DNA of 64,000 nucleotides from Amphiscolops sp. MND2022 (lineage: Eukaryota). Of the stretch, positions 1 to 64,000 are shown one piece after another. Position 1 is the first letter of the stretch. Each line of letters starts with the position of its first letter. The position numbers and the translations under genes were made by a program. Under the pieces are notes generated by a model. That model worked only from the letters and a program-made list of their open reading frames with translations, searched no databases and was not told where the DNA came from. The stretch spans positions 72,542,001-72,606,000 of the forward strand of contig OZ076409.1 in assembly GCA_964187785.1 (NCBI GenBank), written 5' to 3'.

Positions 1-449
1 AGTAGTCATGTACCACAACATTTGCTAATCGATAGCAACTTTTGTTGAAAATTGATACAACATCACATTTTTGGTGAACTCGAAATGACAAAATGGAGCT
101 TTACCAGAAACTATTGGCTTTTAGTACAACTCACTGGCACTGTAAGTTACGAAAATACGGTTTACAGTAGTTTCATGCTACTTTTTCAGAATCTGAGGTA
201 CATAAAAATATCATACTGAATAGACAAATAACTTCAACATCGGAATTTTTCCGGATGTGTCACCACCTTTTTGGTATCAGCGGTCCTACCAACACTGCTT
301 TTGGTCTAACACTAAACCCAAGGATCAACCAAGATGTATATCAGACTTGTAAAATCAATGCAAGGTCTTTCGACATGTCAAAAGTACTGATAAGATGAGA
401 ATCTTCTCAAAAATTCATGTTATGTGTCATATTCCATTCCACGTTTTTT

Positions 450-1570
450 AATCGGTGCTTGTCGGTTATAGTATTAACGCTCAACAACGAGCTTACTGAC
501 AAGAAACAACTTGTTAACAGTTATTAAAAGTATGTATAATTCCACCATGCTCGGTCTTGGCAGATTTTTCATCCCATTAGTTCTTAACGTGTAAATTTTA
601 CTTCCCAAAAACCCTATTTTTGTCAGGTCGAAATTCGAATTTTCGTGTTTTGATCAATATTATTGTGTCTGACGTAACCCGTGGCCTCCAAAATACTCAA
701 AAACAATAGTATGACTGCTATCAAATGCTTCAGTGACATGTGGGGCACGTTAACACGTTTTGGTAAGAAAAATTCCACTTCGAAGTGAAAATTTGGAAGA
801 CACATTGTGTCAATAAAAACTGAATACATGAAAAACGTACCTAACTCCCGTCAATTAGTATTGACGTAGTAACTGTGTTGCGAATTAGAGGTCTATAGAG
901 TGGTGTATGGGAAAACTGTGGCGCATAAAGCGTTGTTCATAACAAAGTTCTTCCAATAACTACAATTGTGTTTTCAAAAGTTTCACTATATTTCACATAT
1001 TCACAGAATGTGATTGATGCTACCTAGTAATGGAAAACCACTGTCGAATGTTCTTTAGTGGACTCAACAGTCCTGAAAATCACAGACATACATCACGATT
1101 CATAATTATACACTCGAGGCTACACAGTAATTTATTTCCGCTAGTTGCTGATAACTGAATTTCCTGATAGCCTTCCAAGTTGGCCTTGTGTCAACCTGGG
1201 AAGGCTATCAGTACAAAACACAAAGAACACAGCTTGTTGTTGCCTCTAATTTGCTGTTGTTTTCGTTAAGATTTTATGGTACCGTTTCTTTATAACATGT
1301 GGTTAACATAAGACAATTTCTCTCTGTATGGAACGACATCCATTGATAAGAAAGATTACAGTTTTTTAGTTGAAAAAGACCTTGAAACTACTGCGCAATC
1401 CATGCAATTTATCCAAAACGTTCATTCATTTCAATAATTTGCGTCCCATTGAGCGTCACAAACCACTATACCTCCTTTAACTGACAGTACAAAGACACAT
1501 CATCCTTTGACCGTCCACAGACCGAAGGCGTGGCGAGGCACGCCTTGCGAAGACCTTTGGCAAAACAGTA
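450..1570 (+). repeat. Highly diverged relic of a ~2-kb-family unit that lacks its own terminal hairpin/GCTAG
   Basis: Colinear matches to unit bodies: GCTTGTCGGTTATAG (~457), TTTTGTCAGGTCGAAATTCGAA...TCTGACGTAACC...ATACTCAAAAAC (618-704), internal hairpin type I (1164-1211), and a degenerate tail GTACAAAGACACAT...AAGGCGTGGCGAGGCACGCCTT-GCGAAGACC (1487-1555). The left boundary is approximate. Confidence 0.8.
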
Positions 1571-3731
1571 CTAACGTCCGTTCGTGACGCATACGAAAAA
1601 CTATTTTATTTTCAACAATCGTCATAAAGCATATTTGTTATATCGGCCTTTCGTTACATTTGTGCAATGATACCTTTATCAGTGAAATATTAAGTTATAC
1701 ATAGGTAACTGCAGTAACTTCGTGATAACCAAAGTGATATCAAAATGTTGTTACATAAATATTTCTGACACAGCGGAATTCCGAAGTGTCATTAGGCACT
1801 TTTTCAGTGCTCGTTAGGAAAGCGAGCACTTTTGCTTGGACCAAACATGCTCGTATCAGACTGGTCATGTGAAGGCAAGTAACGGAATCGAAACAATGTT
1901 CCTCATCAACTTTTTGGTAGCGTCAGAAACACAATGTTTCCTTTTTAATGTCCCCCAGTTGTTTGTTAGCTTCTGTTCATAGAGAATTGTTTCTGCGCAG
2001 ACCAAAATATAGCAAGTTATCCAATACGCCTAATAACGGATTTGCCCCACACAGAACTATCACTTAACATTTTTGTATGTTGACATCTTTTTACCCCGTT
2101 GTTCAACAACTCATGCACCTTCATTTCTTCTTCAACAACTAACTCGCCACCTCCTTGTCGTCTCGTGGTTTGTTTAGCCTCCAGCGCTAGGTGGGCGGGG
2201 GTAATTCCCCAACAAAAATTACGGCCGGCGGGTTGGGTCCTGCCGGACGTTCAAATAGCGCGAAGCATCTAGTAGAAAACAAGGAGTCCTGAAACAGCGA
2301 TTTTAAAATTGAACCGTTAGAATTTGGTTTTAGATTGCATGCGGCCCTAAAATCCCCATACGAATGGAAGTTCCTGCTGGCGTTAAGCGATTGAAATAAT
2401 ATATAAAAAGTTATGGCCCATTTTTGGGTCACCGAGAAGGTCAAAATGAAGAAAATTTTAACTAAGATGCTGATAACTCAAAATGTGTTAATTTTTGGAC
2501 TTTGACTGTGAAACAAGCTTGGAACCTTCATTTCGTGGCTGTGGCATTGCACTGAACACAAAAGATGTAAAGTTTTCACATTTTTTGAAAATTCGACATT
2601 TTTGAATTTTTTTTCACTACTATCAGTACACTATATGTCAAAAACACCTCTGAAAAATTTTTTTATTTGCTTAAATTTAGAAACCTCGGTATCCATGGTT
2701 TCCGTCAGTACCTACTCGCTGCCAAACACTCAACAGTTTGCATCCAATGTGAAAATAAAATTTTTTTCGTGGTCTTAGGTATTTCACAAGGATTTCTCAA
2801 CTTAGTATCAATTTACAAATTGGTCATTTTGAACACATTATTTTCATCGAAGCGTGTCATATACCGCCCTAATGCTCACGAACGGGCCTACTGGCAACGT
2901 TGGAACCATTTATAGTAATAAAAAGTTTTAAAAAAACTTTTTCACCCCGTCTTCAGTCATTTTACACACTTTCGGAACTTAACTTAGAAAAATTTCAACC
3001 AAAAACCCATTTTTTGTCAAGTCGAAAATTCAAATTCAGCTTTTTAAGCAAAATAAATAAATCTGACATAACCAGTGGGGCCCATGAAACTCAAAACCAC
3101 GATTGAGACTGGTATCAATGGCTCCAATAACATATGAGTCGCGATAAGACGCTATTTTGAGCAAAACATATCAATTGAGGTAAAGATCTCGCAAGCCAGC
3201 GATCACTGTGAAATGTGATTTCATCAAAAATTTACTCTTTTTTGTCAATCACTATGTGCACAGAATGCGTAGGGTGCGTTTCAGCACTATAATGAGGTTT
3301 TTGAAGGCATCGAGTTGCTCAAGGGGTGGTATGAGACATTTTTGTCCCATATACTACTGTAGTTTCCAAAATTTTTACCCCAATATCTGGAAATACAAAC
3401 TTGACAAAATACTTTCAACAACTTTATTCAAAGGTTACAATATAGATGAACACTGTGGTTGATAAGAAACTTTCATCTCTTTCGTTTTCGGAAATATTTC
3501 CGTTCGCATGTGTTACATTCATAGCAGAAAAAAAAATCGAAACTGAAAAATACGCTATTTTGCTGATATAGAATCGCAATGATTGTGCCTAAAAACTCTT
3601 TAAACACTTCTAACGCAACCTTACGCACCCAAAATGATCGAAAATGCTATTCACAATGGTGACATGTGCTCTTTCTACGATCCTGGCTGGACAAGGTTTG
3701 CATATTTTTCAAGTACCTGTCAGCTAAATCT

Positions 3732-3781
3732 TGTGATAGCCTTTTCAGTTGGCCTTGTGTCAACTTGGGAAGGCTATCACA
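3732..3781 (+). other. Internal hairpin type I (representative copy)
   Basis: TGTGATAGCCTTTTCAGTTGGC-CTTGT-GTCAACTTGGGAAGGCTATCACA; also at 1164-1211, 6487-6531, 63349-63392 and in every 2-kb unit. Confidence 0.85.
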
Positions 3782-4105
3782 TCACAAAACCATCAACAAA
3801 GATAATTTTTGTTTATTGGATCTTACAGTCGATACTTTTTTTCGTGATTCTATACTACCGTTAGTATATTTCATCAGGTCACCTTACGATTGCATTCAGT
3901 CTTTGATAAAAACCTATGAACTCAAAGTCACATTTATATATTTTTTTGCCAGAAAATAACATCAAAAATATCTAAAATATATAAAATAGAGTCTTTAACA
4001 TTTTTACGTTTCAAGTTTTTGCCGTTATTAGGCCAATCAACGTCCTAGAGCCACATCCTGTCATACTGTACAACGCCACATAGTGTTGCGACGTTCACGG
4101 TCTGT

Positions 4106-4125
4106 GGGCATGCCGAGGCATGCCC
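4106..4125. promoter_or_regulatory. 20-bp palindrome matching the p53-family response element (representative copy; one per unit)
   Basis: GGGCATGCCG+AGGCATGCCC matches 2x RRRCWWGYYY at 19 of 20 positions with no spacer. It is present in all 25 complete units, 52-58 bp before the junction in the copies measured. Binding is not shown. Confidence 0.5.
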
Positions 4126-4177
4126 TTCGACGACGTATGCCGAATACCGCGGGCCTACGCCCGCGCTCCCCGGCTAG

Positions 4178-5451
4178 GTGGTCGTTAGCATGGGATTTTC
4201 TTTATGAGCGTAGTCCACTTTTTTTAGGCCGGGGTAGGGTCCCGGGCCGTTACCAATTTCTTACGGAGGAAAAATGTGAAAATCTGCGAGTTTAAAAAAT
4301 TGGCCCGTACGATTTGGCTGAAAATTGGCATACAGCATCGTCTTGGGAAACAAATGACTTTGTCCTAGTGTCATTTTGCCCAGAAAATTCAAAAAGTTGG
4401 TCAAATTGAAAATTTTTTGTCCGTCCAAGGCAAAAATTTGACTTTTTCGCTTTTTTTGGCCAATTTTCTCAGAATTGGTTGATTTTGGTGCAGTGAGTCA
4501 TAAGAGGTTATGAGGTCTGCAAGTAGCCATCAATCGGCTTGCATAATCAGATTTTGTCAAAAGTGTTTAGTTTTTTCAAAAATTCACACTTTTTTTTATT
4601 TCAATGTTTTTTGATACACTTTATTGAATTTTTTCTAAGTTTCACTAAATTTTTTAAAAATGTTTTAAAACACTATTTTTGCACGTTTTTGATGTTTTAC
4701 GCTCTCCCATATAGGTTTTCGCATACGGGGAACCTGAATCTGGCAACGAAATAACTATTTTCTGCAGTTCAACTTTCGCCATTTTTAATGGTTGAAAAAT
4801 CACTCATTTTCAACCTAACGAGTGAAAATATCAGAATTTAAAAACATAAAGTTGAGTTTAAGGAGACTTACAGGTGGAAACAAATGCTCAGAAACAAATA
4901 GATTTCTTGTATTAGCCAAAGAAAGCCTTTAAAATTCTTTTTACTTTCTTTAAATCAAAATTCAACTATTTTTAGGAAATTTGGCAGTGAAAAAAATTTA
5001 TAATTTTTAAATAAAAAACTTGCTTTGTTGGTCATTTGAGTTTGTCATTATTATCTGTGTAATTCACCAACACGTTTCAATTATTTTGACCCAATTTGAA
5101 AATTTTTGATACTGCATAATCTATCCGAGAGAACGAAACAGTTGTGTACATTCCATCTCCCTCCTGGGGGAGATGAGAATGTACTTGCCAAAGTCCAGGT
5201 ACTACAGACCATATTTGTTTTTATGCGACGCCGTCTATACTTGTGCACATGAATACAAATTGTTTGTCTGAATTTTACTTCTGACTTGACGTATGCTGTA
5301 CGTTTGGTACTGACAATACCCATCATATACATAACAAGCGTCAACGCCACATACCCTTACCAACGCCCATAGTCCGTAGGCATGCCGAGGCATGCCTTTC
5401 GACGACGCGCGCCAAACACAAGCGCGCCCGCACTTTTGCGGTAGCGGCTAG
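4178..5451 (+). mobile_element. Unit 2, unique body (1274 bp)
   Basis: Body not alignable by eye to the 2-kb family. It keeps head stem GGCCGGGG-TAGGGT-CCCGGGCC (4227-4248), type II hairpin (5146-5184), variant palindrome AGGCATGCCGAGGCATGCCT (5378-5397) and tail CCGCA-CTTT-TGCGG-TAGCGGCTAG. Confidence 0.6.
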
Positions 5452-6839
5452 GTGGTTGGGGCGGTCCCCAGAACGCACAAGGAGGCGCGGGGAGGGTCCT
5501 GCGCCGACATAGAATAATTTCATATAATACTAGTATCCTACATGGGTGTTTTAGAGGCGATTTTGGAATCTAACCGTAGGATTTGGATAATTTTTTGCAT
5601 GCGGCCATAACTCGAAATTCTAAGAACTTTTTCCTACTGTCATTTTCCCCGCAAATTGTTTTTTGTTGACTTATGGCCGAAAAACCGGAAATAACGTCCT
5701 TTTTAGACGTTATATCCGAAGTGTCGTCATAACTTTTTTCCAGGGCATGCTAGCGTTCTCGTTCACTTTTACACTTAGTTGCAGCATCTCAAAATACAAC
5801 TGGTGGAAAATTTTGGTTGCATTCGGATCACCCCCCATCGAGATAGAAGGGTTCCCCCCTCCAATTTTACCCCCCAAATTTGCAAAAGAGCCAATTTTGA
5901 GCATGAAGCCGAGGATTTAGCGTACCCGCACCCTCCTGATGTTTTGCTGTACGTATTGGGGTCAATCTGACGACATGTGTGGTTTTCACCCCCAACCCCC
6001 CCTTGGACCGGAAATGACACTTTTTTGTGTTTTTGGCAGAATTTAGCCTTTTTCATTATTAGGCAGTCGTTTTAGGGACTCCTAGCAGGATATCGAAATT
6101 GAAATACAACCTGATCACAACCCAGTTACAACATGTTGGCCACTTGGAGGTATCATCATGACCGGAAGTGGGGTCAACCCCCCTTTTTGTGACCGCTTTT
6201 TGACCTTGTGCCCCAAAATGCCAACATCTTGAGGCCTAATGAGGCATTCAAATCTGTACAAAGATAAAATGTTAGACAACCGAAGTCCCGGAAGATCTTT
6301 AGCATATACCGGAAGTTACCCCCCATGACCGGAAGTTACCCAATGTGACCGGAAATGGTCCAAAAAATAATGTAAAGTTGAATTTTTCACTATTTCAAGA
6401 CCACTTAATTGAAACTTTTCAATCTCAAAACTAGCGTACTGGCTTGTTTTGCTGAATTTATGGAAATTGGTGAGCTCTATCGCCCCCGATAGCCTTCGAA
6501 GTTGACCTTGCGTCAACTTTGGAGGCTATCGATAAAGAAAAATGAACAACAAAGTACATTGTTGCTCTCGTTTTTTTCCCGTTGTTTTTCCTCAAACATT
6601 CTTGAGACATATACATGGCCGTTAGTTGAAATCAATATTTAGCCCATGTTATAGCTGGAGCAGCGAAGCGTTACACAGACTAGTGTGGTTTTGAAATCAC
6701 ACTATTTAAATTAACAACTGACCGTCTTAGTCAACTCCACACATTCATACCAACGCCCACCGTCTGTGGGCATGCCGAGGCATGCCCTTCGACGACGTAT
6801 GACGAATCCACTCCAACGACACCCGCAGTCCTCAGCTAG
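5452..6839 (+). mobile_element. Unit 3, 1.39-kb family (1388 bp); near-identical to unit 15
   Basis: Distinct body with CCGGAAG/A motifs; head GGGG-CGGT-CCCC and GGCGCGGG-GAGGGT-CCTGCGCC; type I hairpin 6487-6531; conserved tail palindrome 6768-6787. Confidence 0.6.
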
Positions 6840-8821
6840 GTGGGCGGGGGTAATTCCCCTTCAAAAAATTCGGCCGGCGGGTTGGGTCCTGCCGGACGTC
6901 AAATAGTGTGAAACATCCAGTAGGAAACGGCGACATTTATCAGCGATTTTAAAATTTAACCGTTAGAATTCGGACTTGGAGTGCATGCGGCCCCAAAATG
7001 CCCATACGAATGGAAGTTCCTGCTGACGTTAAGCGACAAAAACACTTTATAAAAAGTTATGGCCCATTTTACGTTCACTTAGAGAGGTAAAATGAGGAAA
7101 ATTTTAACAAAGTTGCTGATAACTCAAAATACATTAATTTTTGGACTTTGACTGTGAAACAAGCTTGGAACCTTCATTTCGTGGCTGTGGCATTGCACTG
7201 AACACAAAAGATGTAAAGTTTTCACATTTTTTGAAAATTCGACATTTTTGAATTTTTTTCACTACTATCAGTACACTATATGTCAAAAACACCTCTGAAA
7301 AAATTTTTTGTTTGCTTAAATTTAGAAACCTCGGTATCCATGGTTTCTGTCGGAACCTACTCGCAGCCAAACACTCAACAGTTTGCATCCAATGTGAAAA
7401 TAAAATTTTTTTTGGGGTCATAAGCGTTTCACAAGGATTTCTCAACTTAGTATTAATTTACAAAATGGTCATTTTGAACACAATATTTTCATCGAGGCTT
7501 GTCGGCTATAGCCTTAATGTTCTAGAACGGTCCTACTGGCAACGTAGGAACCATTTATAGTAATAGAAAGTTTTAAAAAAATTTTTTCATCCGGTCTTCA
7601 GTCATTTTTCAGTCATTCGGAACTTAACTTAGAAAAATTTCGACCAAAATACCCATTTTTTGTCAGGTCGAAAATTCAAATTCAGATTTTTAAGCAAAAT
7701 TATTAACTCTGACGTAACCCATGGGGCCCATGATACTCAAAACAACGATTGACACTGGTATCAATGGCTCCAATAACATATGAGTCGCGATAAGACGTTA
7801 TTTTGAACAATACGTCTCAATTGAGGTAAAGATCTCGCAAGCCAGCGATCACTGTGAAATGTGATTTCATCAAAAATTTACTCATTTTTGTCAATCACTA
7901 TGTGCACAGAATGCGTAGGGTGCGTTTCAGCACTATAATGAGGTTTTTGAATGCATCGAGTAGCTCAAGGGGTGGTATGAGACATTTTTGTCCCATATAC
8001 TTCTGTATTTTCCAAAATTTTTAGCCCAATATCTGGAAATACAAACATGACAAACAACTTTCAACTACTTTATTCAAAGGTTACAATATAGATGAACACT
8101 GTGGTTGATCAGAAACTTTCATCTCTTTCGTTTTCCGAAATATTTCCCTTCGCATGTGTTACATTTGTAGCAGAAAAAAAATCGATACTGAAAAATACGC
8201 TATTTTGCTAATATAGAATCGCAATGATTGTGCCTAAAAACTCTTTCAACACTTCTAGCGCGACCTTACGCACCCAAAATTATCGAAAATGCTATTCACA
8301 ATGGTGACATGTGCTCTTTCAACGATCCTGACTGAACAATTTTCGCAAATTATTCAAGTACCTGTTAACTGAATCTCGTGATAGCCTTTTAAGTTGGCCT
8401 TGCGTCAACTTGGGAAGGCTATCACATCAAAAAATTTCCAACAAAAATACTTTTTGTTTATTGGAAATGACAGTCGATATATAATTTCGTGATTCTATAC
8501 TACCGTTAGTACCTTCCATTAAGTCACCTGACGATTGCATTCAGTCTTTGATAAATACCTATGAACTCGAAGTCATATTTATAAATTTTTTGCCAAAAAT
8601 AAACATCAAAATTATCCAAATTAATTAAAAATGAGTCTTTAAAGTTTTTGTTTTTCTTTTTTTACTGTTATTAGGCCCATCAACTTCCTACAGCCACGCT
8701 CTCTGTCATTAGTACAACACCACATAGTGTAGCGACGTTCATGGTCTGTGGGCATGCCGAGGCATGCCCTTCGACGACGTATGCCGAATACCGCGGGCCT
8801 ACGCCCGCGCTCCCCGGCTAG
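6840..8821 (+). mobile_element. Unit 4, ~2-kb family (1982 bp)
   Basis: Junction to junction and colinear with unit 1; head variant ...CCCCTTCAAAAAATTCGG shared with units 8 and 14. Confidence 0.6.
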
Positions 8822-10802
8822 GTGGGCGGGGGTAATTCCCCAACAAAAATTACGGCCGGCGGGTTGGGTCCTGCCGGACGTCAAATAGCAAAGAATATCT
8901 AGTAGGAAACGGCGACACAGAATCGCGATTTTTAAATCTAACCACAATTTTTTGGACTTGGAGTGCATGCGGCCCTGAAATGCCCATACGAATCGAAGTT
9001 CCTGCTGACGTTAAGCGATTGAAATAATATATAAAAAGTTATGGCCCATTTTTCACTCACATAGAAGGGTAAAATGAGGAAATTTTTAACAAAGTCGCTG
9101 ATAACTCAAAATGTGTTAATTTTTGGACATTGACTGTGAAACAAGCTTGGAACCTTCATTTCGTGGCTGTGGCATTGCACTGAACACAAAAGATGTAAAG
9201 TTTTTACATTTTTTGAAAATTCGACATTTTTGAAATTTTTTTCACTACTATCAGTACCCCATATGTCAAAAACGCTTCAGAAAAAATTTTTTATTTGCTT
9301 TAAATTGGAAACCTTGGTATCCATGATTTCTGTCGGAACCTACTCGCAGCCAAACACTCAACAGTTTGCATCCAATGTGAAAATTAAATTTTTTTCGGGG
9401 TCATAAGCGTTTCACAAGGATTTCTCAACTTAGTATTAATTTACAAAATGGTCATTTTGAACACAAGATTTTCATCAAGGCTTGTCGGCTATAGCCTTAA
9501 TGTTCTAGAACGGTCCCACTGGCAACGTAGGAACCATTTATAGTAATAGAAATTTTTAAAAATTTTTTTCACCCGTTCTTCCATCATTTTTCAGTCATTC
9601 GGAACTTATCTTAGAAAAATTTCGACCAAAATACCCATTTTTTGTCAGGTCGAAAATTCAAATTCAGCTTTTTAAGCAAAATTATTAACTCTGACGTAAC
9701 CCATGGGGCCCATGATACTCAAAACAACGATTGACACTGGTATCAATGGCTCCAATAACATATGAGTCGCGATAAGACGTTATTTTGAGCAATACGTCTC
9801 AATTGAGGTAAACATCTCGCAAGCCTGGGATCACAGTGAAATGTAAATTCATCAAAAATTTACTCATTTTTGTCAATCACTATGTGCACAGAGTGCGTAG
9901 GGTGAGTTCCAGCACTATAATGAGATTTTTGAAGGCATCGGGTTGCTCAAGGGGTGGTATGAGACATTTTTTTCTATATACTACTGTATTTTCCAAAACT
10001 TTTAGCCCATTATCTGGAAAAACTAACTTGACAAAATACTTTCAATGATTTTATTCAAAGGCTACAATGTAGATGAACCCAGTGGTTGATCAGAATCTTT
10101 CATCTCTTTCGTTTTCCGAAATATTTCCCTTCGCATGTGTTACATTTGTAGCAGAAAAAAATCGAAACTGAAAAATACGCTATTTTGCTTATATAGAATC
10201 GCAATGATTGTGCCTAAAAACTCTTTAAACACTTCTAACGCGACCTTACGCACCCAAAATGATCAAAAATGCTATTCACAATGGTGACATGTGCTCTTTC
10301 AACGATCCTGACTGAACAATTTTCGCAAATTATTCAAGTACCTGTTAACTGAATCTCGTGATAGCCTTTTAAGTTGGCCTTGTGTCAACTTGGGAAGGCT
10401 ATCACATCAAAAAATTTTCAACAAAAATACTTTTTGTTTATTGGAAATGACAGTCGATATATAATTTCGTGATTCTATACTACCGTTAGTACCTTCCATT
10501 AAGTCACCTGACGATTGCTTTCAGTCTTTGATAAATACCTATGAACTCGAAGTCTTATTTATTAATTTTGTGCTAAAAATAAACATCAAAACTATCCAAA
10601 TTATTTAAAATTGAGTCTTTACCGTTTTTGTTTTTCTTTTTCTACTGTTATTAGGCTCATCAACTTCCTACAGCCACGCTCTCTGTCATACTGTACAACG
10701 CCACATAGTGTTGCGACGTGCACAGTCTGTGGGCATGCCGAGGCATGCCCTTCGACGACGTATGCCGAATACCGCGGGCATACGCCCGCGCTCCCCGGCT
10801 AG
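8822..10802 (+). mobile_element. Unit 5, ~2-kb family (1981 bp)
   Basis: Junction to junction; head variant ...GTCAAATAGCAAAGAATATC shared with units 6, 10, 18, 22, 23. Confidence 0.6.
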
Positions 10803-12787
10803 GTGGGCGGGGGTAATTCCCCAACAAAAATTACGGCCGGCGGGTTGGGTCCTGCCGGACGTCAAATAGCAAAGAATATCTAGTAGGAAACGGCGACACA
10901 GAATCGCGATTTTTAAATCTAACCACAATTTTTTGGACTTGGAGTGCATGCGGCCCTGAAATGCCCATACGAATCGAAGTTCCTGCTGACGTTAAGCGAT
11001 TGAAATAATATATAAAAAGTTATGGCCCATTTTTCGCTCACAAAGAAGGGTAAAATGAGGAAATTTTTAACAAAGTCGCTGATAACTCAAAATGTGTTAA
11101 TTTTTGGACATTGACGGTGAAACAAGCTCGGAACCTTCATTTCGTGGCTGTGGCATTGCACTGAACACAAAAGATGTAAAGTTTTTACATTTTTTGAAAA
11201 TTCGAAATTTTTGAAATTTTTTTCACTACTATCAGTACCCCATATGTCAAAAACGCCTCAGAAAAATTTTTTTATTTGCTTTAAATTGGAAACCTTGGTA
11301 TCCATGGTTTCTGTCGGATCCTACTCGCAGTCAAACACCCAACAGTTTGCATCCAATGTGGAAATAAAAAATTTTTCGGGGTCATAAGCGTTTCACAAGG
11401 ATTTCTCAACTTAGTTTCAATTTACAAATTGGTCACATTGAACACATTATTTTCATCGAAGCGCGTCAGATACCGCCCTAAAGCTCACGAACGGTCCTAC
11501 TGGCAACGTAGCAACCATTTATAGTAATATAAAAGATTAAAAAAATTTTTTCACCCGGTCTTCAGTCATTTTTCAGTCATTCGGAACTTAACTTAGAAAA
11601 ATTTCGACCGAAATATCCATTTTTTGTCAGGTCGAAAAATCAAATTCAGATTTTTAAGCAAAATTATTAACTCTGACGTAACTCATGGGGCCCATGATAC
11701 TCAAAACAACGATTGACACTGGTATCAATGGCTCCAATAACATATGAGCCGCGATCGGACGTTATTTTGAGCAATACGTCTCAATTGAGGTAAAGATCTC
11801 GCAAGCCAGCGATCACTGTCAAATGTGATTTCATCAAAAATTTACTCATTTTTGTCAATCATTATGTGCACAGAATGCGTAGGGTGCGTTTCAGCACTAT
11901 AATGAGATTTTTCAATGCATCGAGTTGCTCAAGGGGTGGTACGAGACATTTTTGTCCCATATACTACTGTATTTTCCAAAATTTTTAGCCCAATATCTGG
12001 AAATACAAACTTGACAAAATACTTTCAACTACTTTATTCAAAGGTTACAATATAGATGAACACTGTGGTTGATCAGAAACTTTCATCTCTTTCGTTTTCC
12101 GAAATATTTTCCTTCGCATGTGTTATATTTGTATCAGAAAAAAAATCGAAACTGAAAAATACGCTATTTTGCTAATATAGAATCGCAATGATTGTGCCTA
12201 AAAACTCCTTAAACACTTCTAACGCAACCTTACGCACCCAAAATGATCGAAAATGCTATTCACAATGGTGACATGTGCTCTTTCAACGATCCTGGCTGGA
12301 CAAGGTTTGCATATTTTTCAAGTACCTGTCAGCTGAATCTTGTGATAGCCTTTTAAGTTGGCCTTGTGTCAACTTGGGAAGGCTATCACATCAAACAACC
12401 ATCAACAAAAACAATTTTTGTTTATTGGATATTACAGTTGATACCTTATTTCGTGATTCTATACTACCGTTAGTATATTCCATGAGGTCACCTTACGATT
12501 GCATTCAGACTTTGATGAAAACCTATGAACTCAAAGTCACATTTATATATTTTTTGCCCAAAAAAATCATCAAAAACATCTAATATATATAAAATTGAGT
12601 CTTTAACTTTTTTACGTTTCAAGTTTCGGCCGTTATTAGGCCAATCAACTTCCTACAGCCACGCTCTCTGTCATACTGTACAACGCCACATAGTGTTGCG
12701 ACGTGCACGGTCTGTGGGCATGCCGAGGCATGCCCTTCGACGACGTATGCCGAATACCGCGGGCCTACGCCCGCGCTCCCCGGCTAG
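10803..12787 (+). mobile_element. Unit 6, ~2-kb family (1985 bp); near-identical to unit 18
   Basis: Shares diagnostic variants with 42365-44349 (AAGCTCGGAACC, GGATCCTACTCGCAGTC, GCGCGTCAGATAC, GCGATCGGACG). Confidence 0.6.
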
Positions 12788-15023
12788 GTGGGCGGGGGTA
12801 ATTCCCCAACTAAAAAATCGGCCGGCGGGTAGGGTCCTGCCGGCCGTCCAAAATCAAAAATATACTAGTAGAAAACGGCCGGTCAAACGAGCTATTTTTT
12901 TATTTAACCGTTAGAATTTGGGTTTAGATTGCATGCGGCCATGAAATGGCCATACGAATCGAAGTTCCTGCTGACGTTTTGCGATTGAAACACTTTATAA
13001 AAAGTTATGGCCAATTTGTCATTCACCTAGAAGGGCAAAATGAGGAAAATTTTAACAAAGTCACTGATAACTCAAAATGTAATAATTTTTGGACTTTGAC
13101 AGTGATACAAGCTTGGAACTGTCATTTCGTGGCTGTGGCATTGCACTGAACACAAAAGATGTAAAGTTTTCACATTTTTTGAAAATTCGACATTTTTGAA
13201 TTTTTTTTCACTACTATCAGTACACTATATGTCAAAAACGCCTCTGAAAAAAATTTTTATTTGCTTAAAATTAGAAACCTTGGTATCCATGGTTTCCGTC
13301 AGTACCTACTCGCCGCCAAACGCTCAACAGTTTGCATTCAATGTGAAAATATAATTTTTTTCGAGGTCATAGGTGTTTCACAAGGATTTCTCAACTTAGT
13401 ATCTATTTACAAATTGGTCATTTTGAACACATTATTTTCATCGAAGCGTGTCAGATACCACCCTAATGCTCACGAATGGGCCTACTGGCAACGTTGGAAC
13501 CATTTTTAGTAATAGAAAGTATTAAAAAAATATTTTCACCCGGTCTTCAGTCATTTTTCAGACATTCGGTACTTAACTTAGAAAAATTTCGCATCAAAAA
13601 CCCATATTTGGTAGGGTCGAAATTTGAAATTCAGTTTTTTATGCAAAATTATTAACTCTGACGTAACCAGTGGAGCCCATGATACTCAAAAACACGATTG
13701 GGACTGGTATCAGTGGCTCCAATAACATATGAGCCGCGATAAGACGTTATTCAGAGCAAACGCTCTAAATCGAAGTAAACATCTCTGAAGCCTGGGATCA
13801 CAGTGAAATGTGATATCACCAAAAGTTTACTCTTTTTTGTCAATCACTATGTACACAGAGTGCGTAGGGTGAGTTTCAGGACTATAATGAGGTTTTTGAA
13901 GTAATCGCGCTGCTCAAGGGGTGGTATGAGACTATTTTTTCCCATATACTACTACATTTCCATAAATTTGCAGTCCATTGTCCTGGAAAGATAACTTCAC
14001 AAAAACAATTTTTCTACTCTATTCAGTTATTAGAATAAAGTTGAACACTGTGGTTGATCAGAAATGCTCAATTCTTTTGGTTTTTAAAAAAATTCCTTCG
14101 CATTCGTTACATTTGTGGAAGGAAGGTTATCAGTAGCTCCAAAAAAAAACGAAATTTAGCACGAACAGACATGCAACGATGCAAAGCAAAAACGTTTTTA
14201 CAACTTCCGACGTCATTATTTTACCCAAGAAGTTCGAAAATATCATTCGCAATGCTGTCATTCGCTATATATACGATCGCGGTCTATTTACAAACATTTA
14301 GATTTCATTGTTCTGCTTGAAAACCAATTTTTGTCAGGTCGAAATTTTAAATTTTGCCTGGGGAGCAATACCCTTCACGCTGAAGTAAACAGTGGGGCCC
14401 AAGTTACTCAAAAACAAGAAAGAGACTGCTACAATATGTCCTAATAACATATGGACCACGATAGTACGTTTTTCACACAAAAAACTCTCATCCGAAGTAA
14501 ATATGTTGAAAGCTTTTAATCACCGTGAGAAGTGATTTCATCAAAAAATAACTCTTTTTTGTCAATCACTATTTACACAGAATTTGTAAAGTTAGTTTGA
14601 GTCATGAAATGAGGCTTTACCGTAATATGGGTTGCTCAAGGTGTTATATAAGACAAAAACTTCCTCTTTTCTACTAGCTTCTTCAAATATTTCAACCCTT
14701 TGTCACAATAAGTTAATATTCAAAATCTCTTTGAAATGTATCTTTATGTTGGGGTGAAGTCTAAGAACAATAACTATGATCGAAGAATGCTAGTACTGGT
14801 GTTTGAACCATGTCCGGATGAACAAATCACAAAATCATCAAAAAATTGTTCCCTTTTTTGGTTATTTTGGCAGTACTAAAAATGTTAGCCGATAAATAAT
14901 TTTTTCGATGGCACCATTGGATTCCTCTCAAAAAGTTGGTTATATGACCTGTGTAATAACCCCGTATCTTTTCAATTTAAATATATTTAAAAAGCCAACT
15001 ATTTTGACCAAAATCCTAAAAAT

Positions 15024-16365
15024 CATACCATTTCCTAAAAATTTTCAAATGCACCCCATTTGACGTATAAGATAAGCACAGAAAACTATCATATACCGAT
15101 CAACTCTACTCCTATTGTAGATTATTAGAATTTTGTTAAGAATGAATTTTGATGAATATTAAAAAAATTTTGAACCCTCCAAAAATGGGCCAAAATTACA
15201 CGAAAAAATTGACCTTAAAATACCAAAATGTCAAAAAATCATCAAAACCCAGGCTTCTTGGGGTTCTATCAACTCCGCGTGGTCCACAGAGTATGCTAAA
15301 ACAGGTTTTACCCGTTTTTGAGCAATATGTGAAAAAGCCGACATTTTTGGGAAAGAAAAACATACCATTTCCTAAAAAAATTCAAATGCACGTCATTTGC
15401 CGTATTAGAATAGCACAGAAAACTATCACATACCAATCAACTCTACTTTTATTGCAGATGAACAGAATTTTGTTTAGAATAAATTTTACCGGATAATAAA
15501 AAAATTTGAATCCTTCAAAAATGGGCCAAAAATACACGAAAAAATGGACCTTAAAAATTTAAAATGTCAAAAAATCATCAAAACAACAGCTTCTTGGGGT
15601 TCTATCAACTCCACGAGGTCCACAGAGTATGCTAAAACAGGTTTTACCCGTTTTTGAGCAATATGTGAAAAAGCCGACATTTTTGGGAAAGAAAAACATA
15701 CCATTTCCTAAAAAAATTCAAATGCACGCCATTTGCCGTATGAAAATAGCACAGAAAACTATCACATACCAATCAACTCTACTTTCATTGCAGATGAACA
15801 GAATTTTGTTTAGAATAAACTTTACCGGATAATAAAAAAATTTGATTCCTTCTAAAATGGGCCAAAATTACACGAAAAAATGGACCTTAAAATTTTAAAA
15901 TGTCAAAAAATCATCAAAACCACGGCTTCTTGGGGTTCTATCAACTCCACGTGGTCCACAGAGTATGCTTAACCCGGTTTTACCCATCTTTGAGCAAAAT
16001 GTGAAAATACCGACATTTTTGGAAAAGAAAAACATGCCATTTTCTAATAAATTTCAAATGCACGCCATTTGCTGTATGAGAATTACACAGAAAGCTGTCA
16101 CATACCGATCAACTCTACTTCCATTGTAGATTATCAGAAGTTTGTTTAGAATAAATTTTGAAGGATAATAAAAAAATTTGAATCCATCAAAAATGGGCCA
16201 AAATTACACGAAAAAATTGACCTTAAAATATCAAAATGTCAAAAAATCATCAAAACCACAATTTCTTGGCGTTCTATCAACTCCATATGATACCAAACCA
16301 GGTACTGCCAATCGTTTGAGTTATAATAAAAAAACGTCTTTTTTGGCAAGAATTCCATACCATAA
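15024..16365 (+). repeat. Internal tandem repeat, ~4 x 336 bp (unit 7)
   Basis: CATACCATTTCCTAAAA anchor at 15024, 15361, 15697 and 16033; last copy degenerate. Confidence 0.9.
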
Positions 16366-16574
16366 ATAATAATCATGTTCCATATAAGAAGCGAATCATT
16401 TCAGATATATACCCTGTTCATTTTTTTAATATTACCGATTATTAATTTAATAGATGTTTTGAATGTGAGCTTCCTAAAAGGTTTAGGTGTGATGATACGT
16501 AAATAGAACCTTAGTTTCATCGAAATCTCAATTGAATATGTCCAATCTTAACCATCAGATAACAAGAAACACTT

Positions 16575-16617
16575 AAGTACATTCCATCTCCCCATCGGGG
16601 GAGATGAGAATGTACTT
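16575..16617 (+). other. Internal hairpin type II (representative copy)
   Basis: AAGTACATTC-CATCTCCCC-ATCG-GGGGAGATG-A-GAATGTACTT with one bulged A; also at 5146, 29279, 34049, 48142 and 52913. Confidence 0.85.
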
Positions 16618-17549
16618 TCGAGAAGCCAAATACGTCCAACATTCAAACTTTTGTAACTTTGTATGTAACTCCTGAAACGAAGAAGGAATAAAATTGTTTC
16701 TGGTACATACATGAGTCTTTACTTCAGCTTCTATTTCTGCTGAACAAAACCATTCGACTCTTTTGCCGGAGTTAAGATCGATTGTATTACCCAGTGAACA
16801 AAGGCATGACTGAAAACGTTTACTACTTTGTTCATAATTTTCCGGCCTTCCGAAATGATGAAACGTCCACATAACTAAGATAGCAAGTGAATGACTGCGA
16901 AATGCACCTTATTAGATGAGGTAAATAACGTGTAAAACTCTCCTTTATCCTAACATGAGGTTGAGTAATGATCATTTGAGAATAGTTTGATATGTGAATA
17001 CAATAGTATAAAACAAGTACATTTTATATGAATAACGCCGTGGAAAGCGTTCAGAAAGGACATTAGGCTTGTTTGGAACATGTATGTGTGGTGTCCCTTG
17101 GTGGCGTTCGCTTAGTGTATATGTCGAGGGGTATTCGAGTTGTTATGATAGAATTTACACACAAGTCTTTTGTTTTTTGGTTTTTTTAAAATGTCGTTAA
17201 GTACCTGCATTCTATCCCCTTCTCAGAGATGACGTGAAGTTACGTTTGCTAAATAAATGTCATCGAAAGATCACACTCCCGACGAAATTAACTATCTTAA
17301 CACGTGTTTAGAATTTTAAATAAACAACCGTATAAGATTTTTATATTTCATTGAGTTTGATGAAGTCTTTTGTTCTTCTCACTACTATTTCAACCAATAC
17401 ACATATCCGTTACCATATCACATGTCTCCATTAGTACAACGCCACATAGCGTTCCGACGCCCACAGTCTGTGGGCATGCCGAGGCATGCCCTTCGACGAC
17501 GTATGGCAAATGGAGCCATGCCCGCCGTCTTTACGGCGGTAGCGGCTAG

Positions 17550-19530
17550 GTGGGCGGGGGTAATTCCCCTTCAAAAAATTCGGCCGGCGGGTTGGGTCCT
17601 GCCGGACGTCAAATAGTGTGAAACATCCAGTAGGAAACGGCGACATAAATCAGCGATTTTAAAATTTAACCGTTAGAATTCGGACTTGGAGTGCATACGG
17701 CCCCAAAATACCCATACGAATCGAAGTTCCTGCTGACGTTAAGCGATAAAAACACTTTATAAAAAGTTATGGCCCATTTTACGTTCACTTAGAGAGGTAA
17801 AATGAGGAAAATTTTAACAAAGTTGCTGATAACTCAAAATACATTAATTTTTGGACATTGACTGTGAAACAAGCTTGGAACCTTCATTTCGTGACTGTGG
17901 CATTACACTGAACACAGAAGATGTAAAGTTTTTACATTTTTTGAAAATTCGACATTTTTCAAATTTTTTTCACTACTATCAGTACCCCATATGTCAAAAA
18001 CACCTCAGAAAAAATTTTTTATTTGCTTTAAATTGGAAACCTTGGTATCCATGGTTTCTGTCGGAACCTACTCGCAGCCAAACACCCAACAGTTTGCATC
18101 AAATGTGAATTAAAAATTTTTTTCGAGGTCATAAGGGTTTCACAAGGTTTTCATAACTTAGTATTAAACTACAAACTGGTCATTTTCAACATAATATCTT
18201 TGTCGAGGCATGTCGGATATAGTCCTATTGCTCACGAACGGTCCTACTGGCAACGTAATAACCATTTATAGAAATGTAAAGTTATAAAAAAAATTTTCAC
18301 CCGGTCTTCAGTCATTTTTCAGTCATTCGGAACTTAACTTAGAAAAATTTCGACCAAAATATCCATTTTTTGTCAGGTCGAAAAATCAAATTCAGATTTT
18401 TTAGCAAAATTATTAACTCTGACGTAACCCATGGTGCCCATGATACTCAAAACAACGATTGACACTGGTATCAATGGCTCCAATAACATATGAGTCGCGA
18501 TAAGACGTTATTTTGAGCATTACGTCTCAATTGAGGTAAAGATCTCGCAAGCCAGCGATCACTGTGAAATGTGATTTCATCAAAAATTTACTCTTTTTTG
18601 TCAATCACTATGTGCACAGATTGCGTAGGGTGCGTTTCAGCACTATAATGAGGTTTTTGAAGGCATCGAGTTGCTCAAGGGGTGGTATGAGACATTTTTG
18701 TCCCATATACTACTGTATTTTCCAAAATTTTTAGCCCAATATCTGGAAATACAAACTTGACAAAATACTTTCAACTACTTTATTCAAAGGTTACAATATA
18801 GATGAACACTGTGGTTGATCAGAAACTTTCATCTCTTTCGTTTTCCGAAATATTTCCCTTCGCATGTGTTACATTCGTAGCAGAAAAAAAATCGAAACTG
18901 AAAAATACGCAATTTTGCTAATATAGAATCGCAATGATTGTGCCTAAAAACTCTTTAAACACTTCTAACGCAACCTTACGCACCCAAAATGATCGAAAAT
19001 GCTATTCACAATGGTGACATGTGCTCTTTCTACGATCCTGGCTGGACAAGGTTTGCATATTTTTCAAGTACCTGTCAGCTAAATCTTGTGATAGCCTTTT
19101 CAGTTGGCCTTGTGTCAACTTGGGAAGGCTATCACATCAAAAAACCATCAACAAAAGTAATTTTTGTTTATTGGATCTTACAGTCGATACTTTTTTTCGT
19201 GATTCTATACTACCGTTAGTATATTTCCTCAGGTCACCTTACAATTGCATTCAGTCTTTGATAAAAACCTATGAACTCAAAGTCACATTTATATATTTTT
19301 TTGCCAAAAAAAACATCAAAAACATCTAAAATATATAAAATAGAGTCTTTAACATTTTTACGTTTCAAGTTTCTGCCGTTATTAGGCCAATCAACGTCCT
19401 AGAGCCCATCCTGTCATACTGTACAACGCCACATAGTGTTGCGACGTGCACAGTCTGTGGGCATGCCGAGGCATGCCCTTCGACGACGTATGCCGAATAC
19501 CGCGGGCCTACGCCCGCGCTCCCCGGCTAG
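17550..19530 (+). mobile_element. Unit 8, ~2-kb family (1981 bp)
   Basis: Junction to junction; head like units 4/14, 3' part like units 1/10. Confidence 0.6.
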
Positions 19531-21522
19531 GTGGGCGGGGGTAATTCCCCAACAAAAAAATCGGCCGGCGGGTCGGGTCCTGCCGGCCGTCCAAAATCAA
19601 AATCCTCCTAGTAGAAAACGGCATGTCAAACGAGCTATTTTTTTATTTAACCATACGAATTTCACCATTTTTTGCATGCGGCCCTGAAATGGCCATACGA
19701 GACGAAGTTCCTGCTGACGTTTTGCGATGTAAATGTTTTATATAAAGTTGTGGCCGATTTGTCACTTACCTAGAAGGGCAAAATGAGGAAAATTTTTACA
19801 AAGTCGCTGATAACTCAAAATGTGGTAATTTTTGGACTTTGACTGTGAAACAAGCTTGGAACCTTCATTTCGTGGCTGTGGCATTGCATTGAACACAAAA
19901 GATGTAAGGTTTTTACATTTTTTGAAAATTCGACATTTTTGAAAATTTTTTCACTACTATCAGTACCCCATATGTCAAAAACACCTCAGAAAAAAATTTT
20001 TATTTGCTTTAAATTGAAAACCTTGGTAGCCATGGTTTCTGTCGGAACATACTCGCTGCCAAACACCCAACAGTTTGCATCCAGTGTGAATTTAAAAATT
20101 TTTTCGAGGTCTTAGGTGTTTCACAAGGATTTCTCAACTTAGTATCAAATTACAAATTGGTCATTTTAAACACATTATTTTCATCGAAGCGTGTCAGATA
20201 CCGCCCTAATGCTCACGAACGGGCCTACTGGCAACGTTGAAACAATTTATCGTAATAGAAAGTTTTGAAAAAAATTTTTCACCCGGTCTTCAGTCATTTT
20301 TCACACATTCGGAACTTAACTTAGAAAAATTTCAACCGAAAAACCCATTTTTTGTCAGGTCGAAAATTCGAAGTCAGATTTTTAAGCAAAATTATCAACT
20401 CTGACGTAACCAGTGGGGCCCATGATACTCAAAACAACGATTGGGGTTGGTACCAATGGCTCCAATAACATATGAGTCGCGATAAGACGTTATTTTGAGC
20501 AATATGTCTCAATTGAGTTAAAGATCTCGCCAACCAGTGATCACTGTGAAATGTAAATTCATTAAAAATTTACTCATTTTCGTCAATCACCATGTGCACA
20601 GAGTGCGTAGGGTGAGTTCCAGCACTATAATGAGGTTTTTGAAGGCATCGGGTTGCTCAAGGGGTGGTATGAGACATTTTTTTCCTATATACTACTGTAT
20701 TTTCCAAAAGTTTTAGCCCATTATCTGGAAAAACTAACTTGACAAAATACTTTCAATAACTTTATTCAAAGGTTACAATGTAGATGAACCCAGTGGTTGA
20801 TCAAAAATTTTCATCTCTTTCGGTTTCCGAAATAATTCCCTTCGAATGTGTTACATTTGTAGCAGGAAAAAAACCGAAACTAAAAAATACGCGATTTTGC
20901 TGAGATAGAATCGCAATGGTTGCCCCTAAAATCTCTTTAAATACTTCTAACGCGACCTTATGGACCCAAAATGATTGAAAATGCCATTCACAATGCTGAC
21001 ATGTGCTCTTTCGACGATCCTGGCTAGACAAGTTTTGCATATTTTTCAAGTACCTGTTAACTGAATTTTGTGATAGCCTTTTAAGTTGGCCTTGTGTCAA
21101 CTTGGGAAGGCTATCACATCAAAAAACTTTCATCAAAAAGACTTTTTGTTTTTACAATAATGTAGTCGATAGTTATTTTCGTGATTTTACAATACCGTTA
21201 GTACCTTCCGCCAGGTCAGCTGACGATTGCATGCTGTCTTTGATAAAAACGTATGAACACCAAGAAAATTTTGTTGTATTTTTGTTGAAGAAAAGTATTA
21301 ATAAATAATAAAAATATAATTCTAACCTTAAACAACTATAAATTTGCTTAACCGTTATTAGTCCTACCATCTATCATCAGCCTATGCCATGGCCCGGTGA
21401 TTAGTAGTACAACGCCACATAAAGTAGCGACGCCCACAGTCTGTGGGCATGCCGAGGCATGCCCTTCGACGACGTATGGCAATTTTAGCGTAGCCCGCGG
21501 TCACTACCGCGGTAGCAGCTAG
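19531..21522 (+). mobile_element. Unit 9, ~2-kb family (1992 bp)
   Basis: Head like units 16/20; tail CCGCGGT-CACT-ACCGCGG-TAGCAGCTAG like unit 22. Confidence 0.6.
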
Positions 21523-23506
21523 GTGGGCGGGGGTAATTCCCCAACAAAAATTACGGCCGGCGGGTTGGGTCCTGCCGGACGTCAAATAGCAAAGAATATC
21601 TAGTAGGAAACGGCGACACAGAATCGCGATTTTTAAATCTAACCACAATTTTTTGGACTTGGAGTGCATGCGGCCCTGAAATGTCCATACGAATCGAAGT
21701 TCCTGCTGACGTTAAGCGATTGAAATAATATATAAAAAGTTATGGCCCATTTTTCACTCACATAGAAGGGTAAAATGAGGAAATTTTTAACAAAGTCGCT
21801 GATAACTCAAAATGTGTTAATTTTTGGACATTGACTGTGAAACAAGCTTGGAACCTTCATTTCGTGGCGGTGGCATTGCACTAAACACAAAAGATGTAAA
21901 GTTTTTACATTTTTTGAAAATTCGACTTTTTTGAAATTTTTTTCACTACTATCAGTACCCCATATGTCAAAAACGCCTCAGAAAAAAATTTTTATTTGCT
22001 TTAAATTGGAAACCTTGGTATTCATGGTTTCTGTCGGAACCTACTCGCAGCCAAACACCCAACAGTTTGCATCCAAAGTGAAAATAAAATTTTTTTCGGG
22101 GTCATAAGCGTTTCACAAGGATTTCTCAACTTAGTATTAATTTACAAAATGGTCATTTTGAACACAATATTTTCATCGAGGCATGTCGGCTATAGTCCTA
22201 TTGCTCACGAACGGTCCTACTGGCAACGTAATAACCATTTATAGAAATGTAAAGTTATAAAAAAAATTTTTCACCCGGTCTTCAGTCATTTTTCAGTCAT
22301 TCGGAACTTAACTTAGAAAAATTTCGACCAAAATATCCATTTTTTGTCAGGTCGAAAAATCAAATTCAGATTTTTAAGCAAAATTATTAACTCTGACGTA
22401 ACCCATGGGGCCCATGATACTCAAAACAACGATTGACACTGGTATCAATGGCTCCAATAACATATGAGTCGCGATAAGACGTTATTTTGAGCATTACGTC
22501 TCAATTGAGGTAAAGATCTCGCAAGCCAGCGATCACTGTGAAATGTGATTTCATCAAAAATTTACTCTTTTTTGTCAATCACTATGTGCACAGAATGCGT
22601 AGGGTGCGTTTCAGCACTATAATGAGGTTTTTGAAGGCATCGAGTTGCTCAAGGGGTGGTATGAGACATATTTGTCCCATATACTACTGTATTTTCCAAA
22701 ATTTTTAACCCAATATCTGGAAATACCAACTTGACAAAATACTTTCAACTACTTTATTCAAAGGTTACAATATGGATGAACACTGTGGTTGATCAGAAAC
22801 TTTCATCTCTTTCGTTTTCCGAAATATTTCCTTTCGCATGTGTTACATTCGTAGCAGAAAAAAAAATCGAAACTGAAAAATACGCAATTTTGCTAATATA
22901 GAATCGCAATGATTGTGCCTAAAAACTCTTTAAACACTTCTAACGCAACCTTACGCACCCAAAATGATCGAAAATGCTATTCACAATGGTGACATGTGCT
23001 CTTTCTACGATCCTGGCTGGACAAGGTTTGCATATTTTTCAAGTACCTGTCAGCTAAATCTTGTGATAGCCTTTTCAGTTGGCCTTGTGTCAACTTGGGA
23101 AGGCTATCACATCAAAAAACCATCAACGAAAATAATTTTTGTCTATTGGATCTTACAGTCGATACTTTTTTTCGTGATTTTATACTACCGTTAGTATATT
23201 TCATCAGGTCACCTTACGATTGCATTCAGTCTTTGATAAAAACCTATGAACTCAAAGTCACATTTATATATTTTTTTGCCAAAAAAAACATCCAAAATAT
23301 CTAAAATATATAAAATAGAATCATTAACATTTTTACAGTTCAAGTTTCTGCCGTTATTAGGCCAATCAACGTCCTAGAGCCACATCCTGTCATACTGTAC
23401 AACGCCACAAAGTGTTGCGACGTGCACAGTCTGTGGGCATGCCGAGGCATGCCCTTCGACGACGTATGCCGAATACCGCGGGCCTACGCCCGCGCTCCCC
23501 GGCTAG
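21523..23506 (+). mobile_element. Unit 10, ~2-kb family (1984 bp)
   Basis: Junction to junction; colinear with the family. Confidence 0.6.
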
Positions 23507-63809: not shown

Positions 63810-64000
63810 GTGCGGGGGGAAACCCCATCCCTTATCTTGGAGGATTCGGGTAGGGTCCTGAATCCGAGTTCAGTGCCGCCAGCTCTCAGTAGAAATCTGG
63901 GAAATTTTTTGCGATCTCGTGATCTAACCATAGGATTTTAAAGTTGGAGCGGCCCCCACCAGATTTTCCAAAGTTATTCGCCCCCCACCGGGTTCCAGCG
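63810..64000 (+). mobile_element. Unit 26 (partial, runs off the window), related to unit 25
   Basis: GTGCGGGGGGAAACCCC...GGATTCGGGTAGGGTCCTGAATCC...GATCTAACCATAGGATTTTAAAGTTGGAGCGGCCCCCACC shared with 61837-62030. Confidence 0.55.

Follow-up and report, generated by a model that had tools for sequence, protein, structure and literature searches.

What is a small hairpin for when its apex is invariant and its outer stem is exchanged from one repeat unit to the next but still pairs? The question is raised by a tandem array in Amphiscolops sp. MND2022, in which such a hairpin, here called HP2, stands close to the start of every unit. The analysis concerned the whole 64,000-nt stretch of contig OZ076409.1 (the window), and all positions refer to it. 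HP2 is real and selected, and it is probably a transposon end signal. On balance, the reading that we favour is that of a left-end (origin) binding signal, folded on the displaced plus strand, of non-autonomous rolling-circle (HUH-nuclease, Helitron-like) transposons. The behaviour by which the array was built is more noteworthy than the hairpin alone.

The head hairpin HP2

2225..2246 (plus strand): HP2 of unit 1, the finding itself, with a variable outer stem and the invariant apex CGGG-NNGGGT-CCTG containing a G-T pair
4227..4248 (plus strand): HP2 of unit 2, in which G-C replaces G-T and one G.G mismatch occurs
5484..5505 (plus strand): HP2 of unit 3, with the same stem as the metagenome relative L007
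44382..44402 (plus strand): HP2 of unit 19, bulged and the weakest
61870..61893 (plus strand): HP2 of unit 25, with an A-T-rich outer stem, the same in unit 26

These five hairpins, quoted in the first-pass annotation of this DNA, all lie where it placed them. The core SGGG-NNGGGT-CCYG matches 26 times in the 64 kb, always on the plus strand and once for each of the 26 CTAGGTG junctions, whereas 0.01 matches are expected by chance and none of 100 shuffles reaches the observed count; HP2 is present in all 26 unit heads. Its distance from the junction had been put at 40-60 bp, which is roughly right, as the core starts 36-39 nt past the junction (54 nt in unit 2). The inner CGGG/CCTG stem with its G-T pair was said to be kept in all heads except that of unit 2, and this is the case in 25 of the 26, the G-C of unit 2 having the G.G mismatch beside it. 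The outer stems, described as still pairing, do so for the most part: by a strict no-gap rule, at least four contiguous outer pairs occur in 23 of the 26 heads, but not in unit 19, which needs a bulge, in unit 20, which has a point G.A mismatch, or in unit 2, where the stem is broken inside. As a control, the core was matched by chance at 57 places in viral contigs, of which 4 have at least four outer pairs. The closing mismatches on the plus strand are G.A or tandem GA/GA (units 2, 3, 19, 25 and 26, and L007).

Is this stem selected for pairing, or is it inherited as a block? The 26 head copies are non-independent and reduce to five head types in the window. Across these five independent types the matched outer arms form 19 Watson-Crick pairs out of 25, against a mean of 8.6 for permuted arms, and 2 of 120 permutations equal this number. 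The covariation alignment is a small sample of ten ungapped heads (nine distinct, several related), in which 84% of the cells are paired, versus 66% in shuffles (0/500), two-sided changes occupy 14 cells versus 5.9 (0/500), and the covariation score reaches 0.42, whereas sliding the partners gives no more than 0.20. Four outer pairs show a two-sided change, a count not above that of shuffles (293/500). From the matched arms and the covariation it follows that the outer stem of HP2 is held by pairing and its apex by sequence; outer arms that covary without sequence conservation imply, in turn, that intrastrand pairing is needed. For the first-pass proposal of a protein-recognised stem-loop, the selected pairing is thereby supported, and the part played by a protein is plausible, as suggested by an invariant apex atop a freely varying stem.

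A related question is which strand folds. The first-pass annotation held that the plus strand probably does, on the strength of the G-T pair, and that G-T should outnumber A-C mismatches on it. The pair by itself says little, since it was inherited from a single event and lies in an invariant block of 12 nt, so that sequence conservation explains it equally well; its only change, T to C in unit 2, restores pairing on both strands. Modest independent support comes from the remaining hairpins of these units: when five hairpin kinds are compared in a strand-neutral alignment of their arms, the plus strand has nine distinct G-T against two A-C mismatches (one-sided p=0.033), six of the nine coming from the internal hairpin A described below, in which one position alternates between G-T and A-T. 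With DNA parameters, HP2 alone is more stable on the plus strand by 1.6-3.8 kcal/mol in all eight heads tested, a gap that largely restates the G-T; the HP2 of unit 19 is as stable as its shuffles (z 0.0) and that of unit 2 is marginal. With RNA parameters the plus fold is the more stable in 14 of 14 distinct heads. The tails (last 125 nt) show no preference for the plus strand: the minus strand is the more stable in 9 of 9, with similar z-scores on both strands. The bulk composition is free of G+T skew on the plus strand (ratio 0.90-1.11). Folding of HP2 on the plus strand has, overall, modest support, and the context favours single-stranded DNA rather than RNA.

Across head types the commonest HP2 loop is TAGGGT (for example at 4235-4240), which we take to be a permutation of the animal telomere repeat; the variants TT, TC and GA break it. 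Other likenesses were considered and not adopted: a tRNA T-loop or B-box, as the loop has 6 nt and the key bases vary; a G-quadruplex in the heads, as the G-runs are not kept in unit 2; and a k-turn, for which inspection found no matching C-stem.

Heads, bodies and tails of the array units

HP2 is one part of a conserved head of about 200 bp, carried by non-coding units that abut at a short junction core.

2186..2193 (plus strand): first junction core, GCTAG/GTG, the slash marking the tail-head boundary; to its left a non-repeat flank without tail motifs (candidate target site)
2191..2440 (plus strand): conserved head of unit 1, with HP1, HP2 and, about 120-200 nt in, another conserved block; common to all head types and L007
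2198..2210 (plus strand): HP1, a small head hairpin GGGG-N3-5-CCCC, in 24 of the 26 heads
2191..64000 (plus strand): the whole array, in one orientation, with 25 units in full and a 26th represented by its head, running off the window
2191..4177 (plus strand): unit 1, of the family of about 2 kb, with mosaic subfamilies
4178..5451 (plus strand): unit 2, 1.27 kb, unrelated body
5452..6839 (plus strand): unit 3, 1.39 kb, unrelated body; unit 15 is a 96% copy
12788..17549 (plus strand): unit 7, of the 4.76-kb family; in its centre, four tandem repeats of 336 bp (15019-16285)
61837..63809 (plus strand): unit 25, 1.97 kb, unrelated body
440..1604 (plus strand, the orientation of the array): an older, diverged solitary relative, about 70% identical to the 2-kb body

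HP1 had been noticed in most heads; it is found in 24 and in L007 as well, and in units 2 and 19, which lack it, the terminal GTGG can pair with a downstream CCAC instead. All 26 heads and L007 start with GTG (TG if the cut is one base later), and the units end in CTAG at 26 of 26 window junctions. The junction core measures 8 nt, of which L007 shares AGGTG only, and the cut may lie anywhere within it. Left of the first head there are 580 bp that contain no tail motif and have no relative in the window; this flank is GC-rich and ends in GCTAG. The presence of GCTAG both there and at the unit tails hints, from a single flank, at a sequence-specific target. Four minus-strand CTAGGTG matches were rejected as junctions because they are internal to one head subfamily.

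The window has 37% G+C, is filled with repeats and contains no ORF longer than 129 codons. Unit lengths are 1.27, 1.39, about 1.98 and 4.76 kb, and the bodies are mosaics. The 2-kb and 4.76-kb families have their first 1.3-1.5 kb in common, and units 2, 3/15 and 25 share only the ends and the internal hairpin with other units. Of the 64 kb, 13.8 (1-6839, unit 7 and 61837-64000) were read through in six frames, and no Pfam family came out above cutoff; three sub-cutoff matches in the repeats of unit 7 were dismissed. The central 336-bp repeats (about four copies, 87-90% alike) occur in unit 7 and in four other 4.76-kb units, and a separate stretch of about 335 bp is found twice in the 4.76-kb family (about 70% alike) and once in the 2-kb family. 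CCGGAAR motifs, presumably ETS-like, number seven in the body of unit 3 (5452-6839) and eight in that of unit 25 (61837-63809), against none or one in the other representatives; they are possibly a cargo of transcription-factor sites.

Further inside and at the right end of the units, the following elements recur:

3733..3780 (plus strand): internal long hairpin of type A, G-T-rich on the plus strand, in 19 of the 25 complete units
5146..5184 (plus strand): internal long hairpin of type B, with a one-base bulge, in 6 of 25 units and in L007 (L007:567-605)
4071..4098 (plus strand): two imperfect direct repeats of the tail (AACGCC(C)AC-like), of which the second weakly repeats the 5' GTGGGCG in inverted form
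4106..4125 (plus strand): tail palindrome GGGCATGC-CGAG-GCATGCCC; unit 2, L007 and the old copy show compensatory changes in it
4148..4177 (plus strand): terminal hairpin, 12 nt from the end, and the closing GCTAG, resembling a Helitron right end

In all 25 complete units a single long hairpin of this kind is found, either A or B. Its orientation is constant and its distance from the 3' end is 306-448 nt (966-973 nt in the 4.76-kb family), and both types are conserved between otherwise unrelated bodies. This one-per-unit rule and fixed orientation, together with the analogy to plasmid single-strand origins as portrayed in a portion of PMC5714925, make A and B candidates for a second-strand origin; an RNA signal is the other candidate function. 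The solitary relative has hairpin A (1164-1211) and a compensated tail palindrome (1527-1544); its putative end is near CTAT (1601-1604), followed by T and by no head.

The tail has a constant order: the two short direct repeats, the palindrome, a conserved 10-mer, CCCG, often a hairpin, and GCTAG. The terminal hairpin lies 10-12 nt from the end in units 1, 13, 16 and 19 and, by inspection, in units 2, 7 and 9; it is 3 nt from the end in unit 25 and absent or very weak in unit 3 and L007. The CCCG is nearly invariant 18-29 nt before the tail end (for example at 4160-4163) and is an inverted copy of the CGGG arm of HP2. It could allow the two ends to pair, tail RCCCG with head CGGG(T), but such pairing spans only 4-5 nt and, by inspection, shows no compensatory change in units 19 and 25.

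How was this array built? The type of head predicts the tail of its own unit (0 of 5000 shuffles as extreme), but the head that comes next cannot be predicted from the tail (p=0.35) or the head (p=0.83) before it. Copies that are 96-99% alike (units 1/11/17/21, 7/12, 6/18, 13/20, 3/15 and 4/14) are never adjacent, and the closest neighbours, of those alignable end to end, are 93% alike. Conserved heads and tails surround unrelated, gene-less bodies, and the units are reshuffled exactly at GCTAG/GTG. Because shuffling at the junction is independent and near-identical copies are never neighbours, the array fits the addition of single monomers, one at a time, at existing junctions, and not concatemers or unequal crossing-over. 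Profile searches with heads and tails found none nested inside any unit.

A rolling-circle reading and its rivals

What kind of element could add itself in this way? Under the rolling-circle reading that we favour, a transposase supplied in trans would read the HP2 apex, that is, the loop and the G-T-containing inner stem, as both shape and sequence, and the outer stem would serve it only as a scaffold. It would nick in the upstream core and peel off the plus strand, and the peeling would terminate at the tail hairpin and CTAG, giving a circle. Each chromosomal joint copies the tail-head junction of such a circle with a full head behind it, so that joints, which offer a nickable core and then a full head, would be preferred targets; single monomers of any family would then be added there, and a shuffled, one-directional array would grow. 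The enzyme class, the binding of HP2 and the position of the nick within the core are what we infer here; Pfam searches in six frames found no transposase in the 13.8 kb of unit representatives and flank. Should junction targeting hold, the partner would act as a sequence-specific integrase that is non-disruptive and piles up kilobase cargo in a single place.

Several precedents are consistent with such a scheme. In vitro, according to passages of PMC5876387, Helraiser cuts a precise tail-head junction on its plus strand only but needs double-stranded donors, and the same passages mention tandem Helitron arrays for plants and bats. For TnpA(REP), an HUH enzyme, an account in part of PMC3333891 has binding require a stem mismatch. 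How a eukaryotic rolling-circle transposase reads its left end, how it chooses targets and how the second strand of the single-stranded circle is made are unsettled points of the model as presented in sections of PMC5876387, and the natural variation seen here allows the parts to be told apart, with an apex that stays invariant while its stem is exchanged, a junction core of 8 nt that has one variant outside the window, and a single obligatory internal hairpin in each unit.

To which known group do the units belong? Those of the non-autonomous Helitron1/HLE1 type (Helraiser/Helibat) are similarly gene-less, with conserved ends and precise head-to-tail junctions, and they act on the plus strand, as is predicted here; their right end, as outlined in a part of PMC5148889, has a hairpin 10-12 nt before CTRR, and many units here have one about 10-12 nt before CTAG. 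Unlike Helitron1, the units start with GTG (or TG) rather than TC, have two 5' hairpins and, in L007, end in CGAG rather than CTRR, and they form a mixed, apparently junction-targeted array whereas Helitron1 inserts between A and T or makes same-family concatemers. With regard to the A and T, the single left flank ends in G, and the old solitary copy is followed by T.

In Helitron2/Helentron/HINE/DINE-1 (HLE2) elements both ends carry hairpins, and the inverted repeats are short and asymmetric (portions of PMC3627910 and PMC11417382); their non-autonomous forms have central tandem repeats (portions of PMC4067079). The units resemble them in having hairpins at both ends and a conserved 5' core, in the central tandem repeats (336 bp here) and in a possible short asymmetric inverted repeat upstream of the 3' palindrome; at the 5' end, HP1 or the GTGG/CCAC stem accompanies HP2 in 26 of 26 heads. 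They differ in showing no significant ATIR of 8-15 bp (the best match between the ends is 6-7/9, p 0.29-0.87 versus shuffled tails, and in 6 of 10 units it immediately precedes the palindrome, 90-95 nt from the end), in termini and flanks that are not T-rich, with a junction core GCTAGGTG that lacks TT, and in a 3' palindrome about 50-60 nt from the end. As neither the 5' TC of Helitron1 nor the T flank of Helitron2 is found, the units are filed under neither.

More distant comparisons are also instructive. The ends of IS200/IS605 and REP/TnpA(REP) elements (prokaryotic Y1 HUH) have a subterminal imperfect hairpin with a conserved mismatch, as here, together with cleavage at some distance and a short target motif that also ends the element, as is proposed here. 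In contrast, the hairpins of the head are unrelated here to those of the tail (the head profile finds no tail and the tail profile no head, the motif being confined to heads), no TnpA is seen in the 13.8 kb read through, and the host is a eukaryote. The telomere-targeting Helitrons of Paramecium, as far as they are characterized in excerpts of PMC13085455, combine non-canonical ends with sequence-specific targeting, one orientation and several alternative right ends, as the units here seem to do; they differ in having telomeric repeats between elements and CCAA ends, whereas the present units abut without a spacer. Replitrons, eukaryotic HUH elements introduced in part of PMC10288648, would be an alternative with direct repeats: short terminal direct repeats and a possible end hairpin are shared, but Replitrons come from plants, algae and protists, their termini differ, and no transposase is at hand here for comparison.

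A bolder version of the rolling-circle reading is conceivable and, in our estimate, doubtful: the units could be undescribed eukaryotic single-strand elements with integron-like cassette arrays, in which a junction-seeking HUH transposase would read a REP-like, strand-discriminating head hairpin and insert monomers of many families only at tail-head joints, with one of the interchangeable hairpins A and B obligatory as the second-strand origin of the circle.

Could the units instead be cassettes of site-specific recombination? A tyrosine (Crypton-like) or serine recombinase would act on circles with a crossover in the shared GCTAGGTG core, and HP2 would be an accessory or attC-like folded site. 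A core crossover accounts for exact, full-length, shuffled units in one direction no less well than HUH targeting does, the GCTAG that the left flank shares with the unit ends approximates a 5-bp terminal direct repeat, and hairpin B keeps a one-base bulge. Cryptons, which are tyrosine recombinase DNA transposons with direct repeats of 4-6 bp (in passages of PMC3212892), are also without terminal inverted repeats, have a circular intermediate proposed for them and show a short sequence shared by flank and end, here GCTAG in a single flank. Inspection of the junction, however, reveals no inverted arms of 11-13 bp around a spacer of 6-8 bp and hence no recombinase-type core, the elaborate covarying hairpins are foreign to Cryptons, the hairpin-plus-CTAG tail and the 5' hairpins match HUH elements better, and Pfam found no recombinase in 13.8 kb. 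We regard this explanation as rather unlikely, though it fares best among the rivals.

Less probable again is an RNA signal, whereby the units would be transcribed and copied through RNA in a retrozyme- or SINE-like manner, with HP2 as a 5' RNA stem-loop for reverse transcriptase or a host protein. The G-U-rich hairpin A and the preference for the plus strand suit RNA, the RNA-parameter folds of the distinct heads (14 of 14) pointing the same way. Telomeric retrotransposons form mixed one-directional arrays according to excerpts of 10.1101/445429, the telomeric Helitrons of that study being randomly oriented. Against copying through RNA, the 25 units include no poly(A) tails and no 5' truncations. 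The Rfam search named at first pass gives no match at gathering score in the 64 kb and none credible at E<5 in 1-7000, the four sub-threshold matches all lying away from junctions, and ARAGORN counts no tRNA. The Pol III B-box contains TTC, and the corresponding positions of the HP2 loop vary.

About equally improbable is that the mobile elements are the same but HP2 is read in double-stranded DNA, as an imperfect inverted-repeat site or a cruciform, with the G-T a conserved position without strand meaning. A G-T that arose once, inside an invariant block, would suit this, as would the perfect, strand-neutral palindrome of the tail and the double-stranded donors of Helraiser (the same part of PMC5876387). 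It is opposed by outer arms that covary without sequence conservation, by the G.A or tandem GA/GA closing mismatches on the plus strand and by the 9:2 excess of G-T. That unequal crossing-over shaped the array as a complex satellite or segmental duplication, the hairpins being by-products, is highly improbable: the tandem layout and mosaic bodies, which show recombination between units, speak for it, but unrelated bodies share ends only, the closest relatives never lie side by side, no repeat of higher order is seen, and three hairpins show compensatory changes.

Relatives outside the window

Do such units exist elsewhere? A search of metagenomes with the tail palindrome returned nine matches, one of them real (L007); the other eight, which have the palindrome alone, were dropped. 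L007 presents the whole anatomy: hairpin B, the tail, a junction GCGAG/GTG (L007:879-886), HP1 and the HP2 stem of unit 3, with 69% identity across 211 nt of head. Its junction means that the T of CTAG is not invariant in the group. In the sequencing run X1, which contains a tenth of the words, a contig of low depth has a new variant of the tail joined at 2186 to the head, and a second contig begins exactly there. The run may be of the same species and these contigs are weak support; parts of 1-6839 that it leaves uncovered are uninformative.

The tail palindrome has no match in viral contigs, where 56, 7, 11 and 17 loci found with other patterns were set aside as chance matches without the architecture. 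Prokaryote genomes gave 0 and 1 match, the latter by chance, and plasmid and phage collections none; no autonomous partner was found in the viral, prokaryote, plasmid, phage and metagenome collections scanned. Five exact element motifs appear in no paper of the literature searched, a body of text that stops short of Repbase, most subscription papers and supplements. Nor do titles or abstracts there describe mixed, junction-targeted Helitron arrays, although the families may be catalogued in those other sources.

A last observation concerns five phage contigs (L073, L074, L078, L081 and L083), in which the apical stem-loop of hairpin A lies inside terminator-like hairpins accompanied by T runs, a sharing that is likely a convergence on a stable loop.
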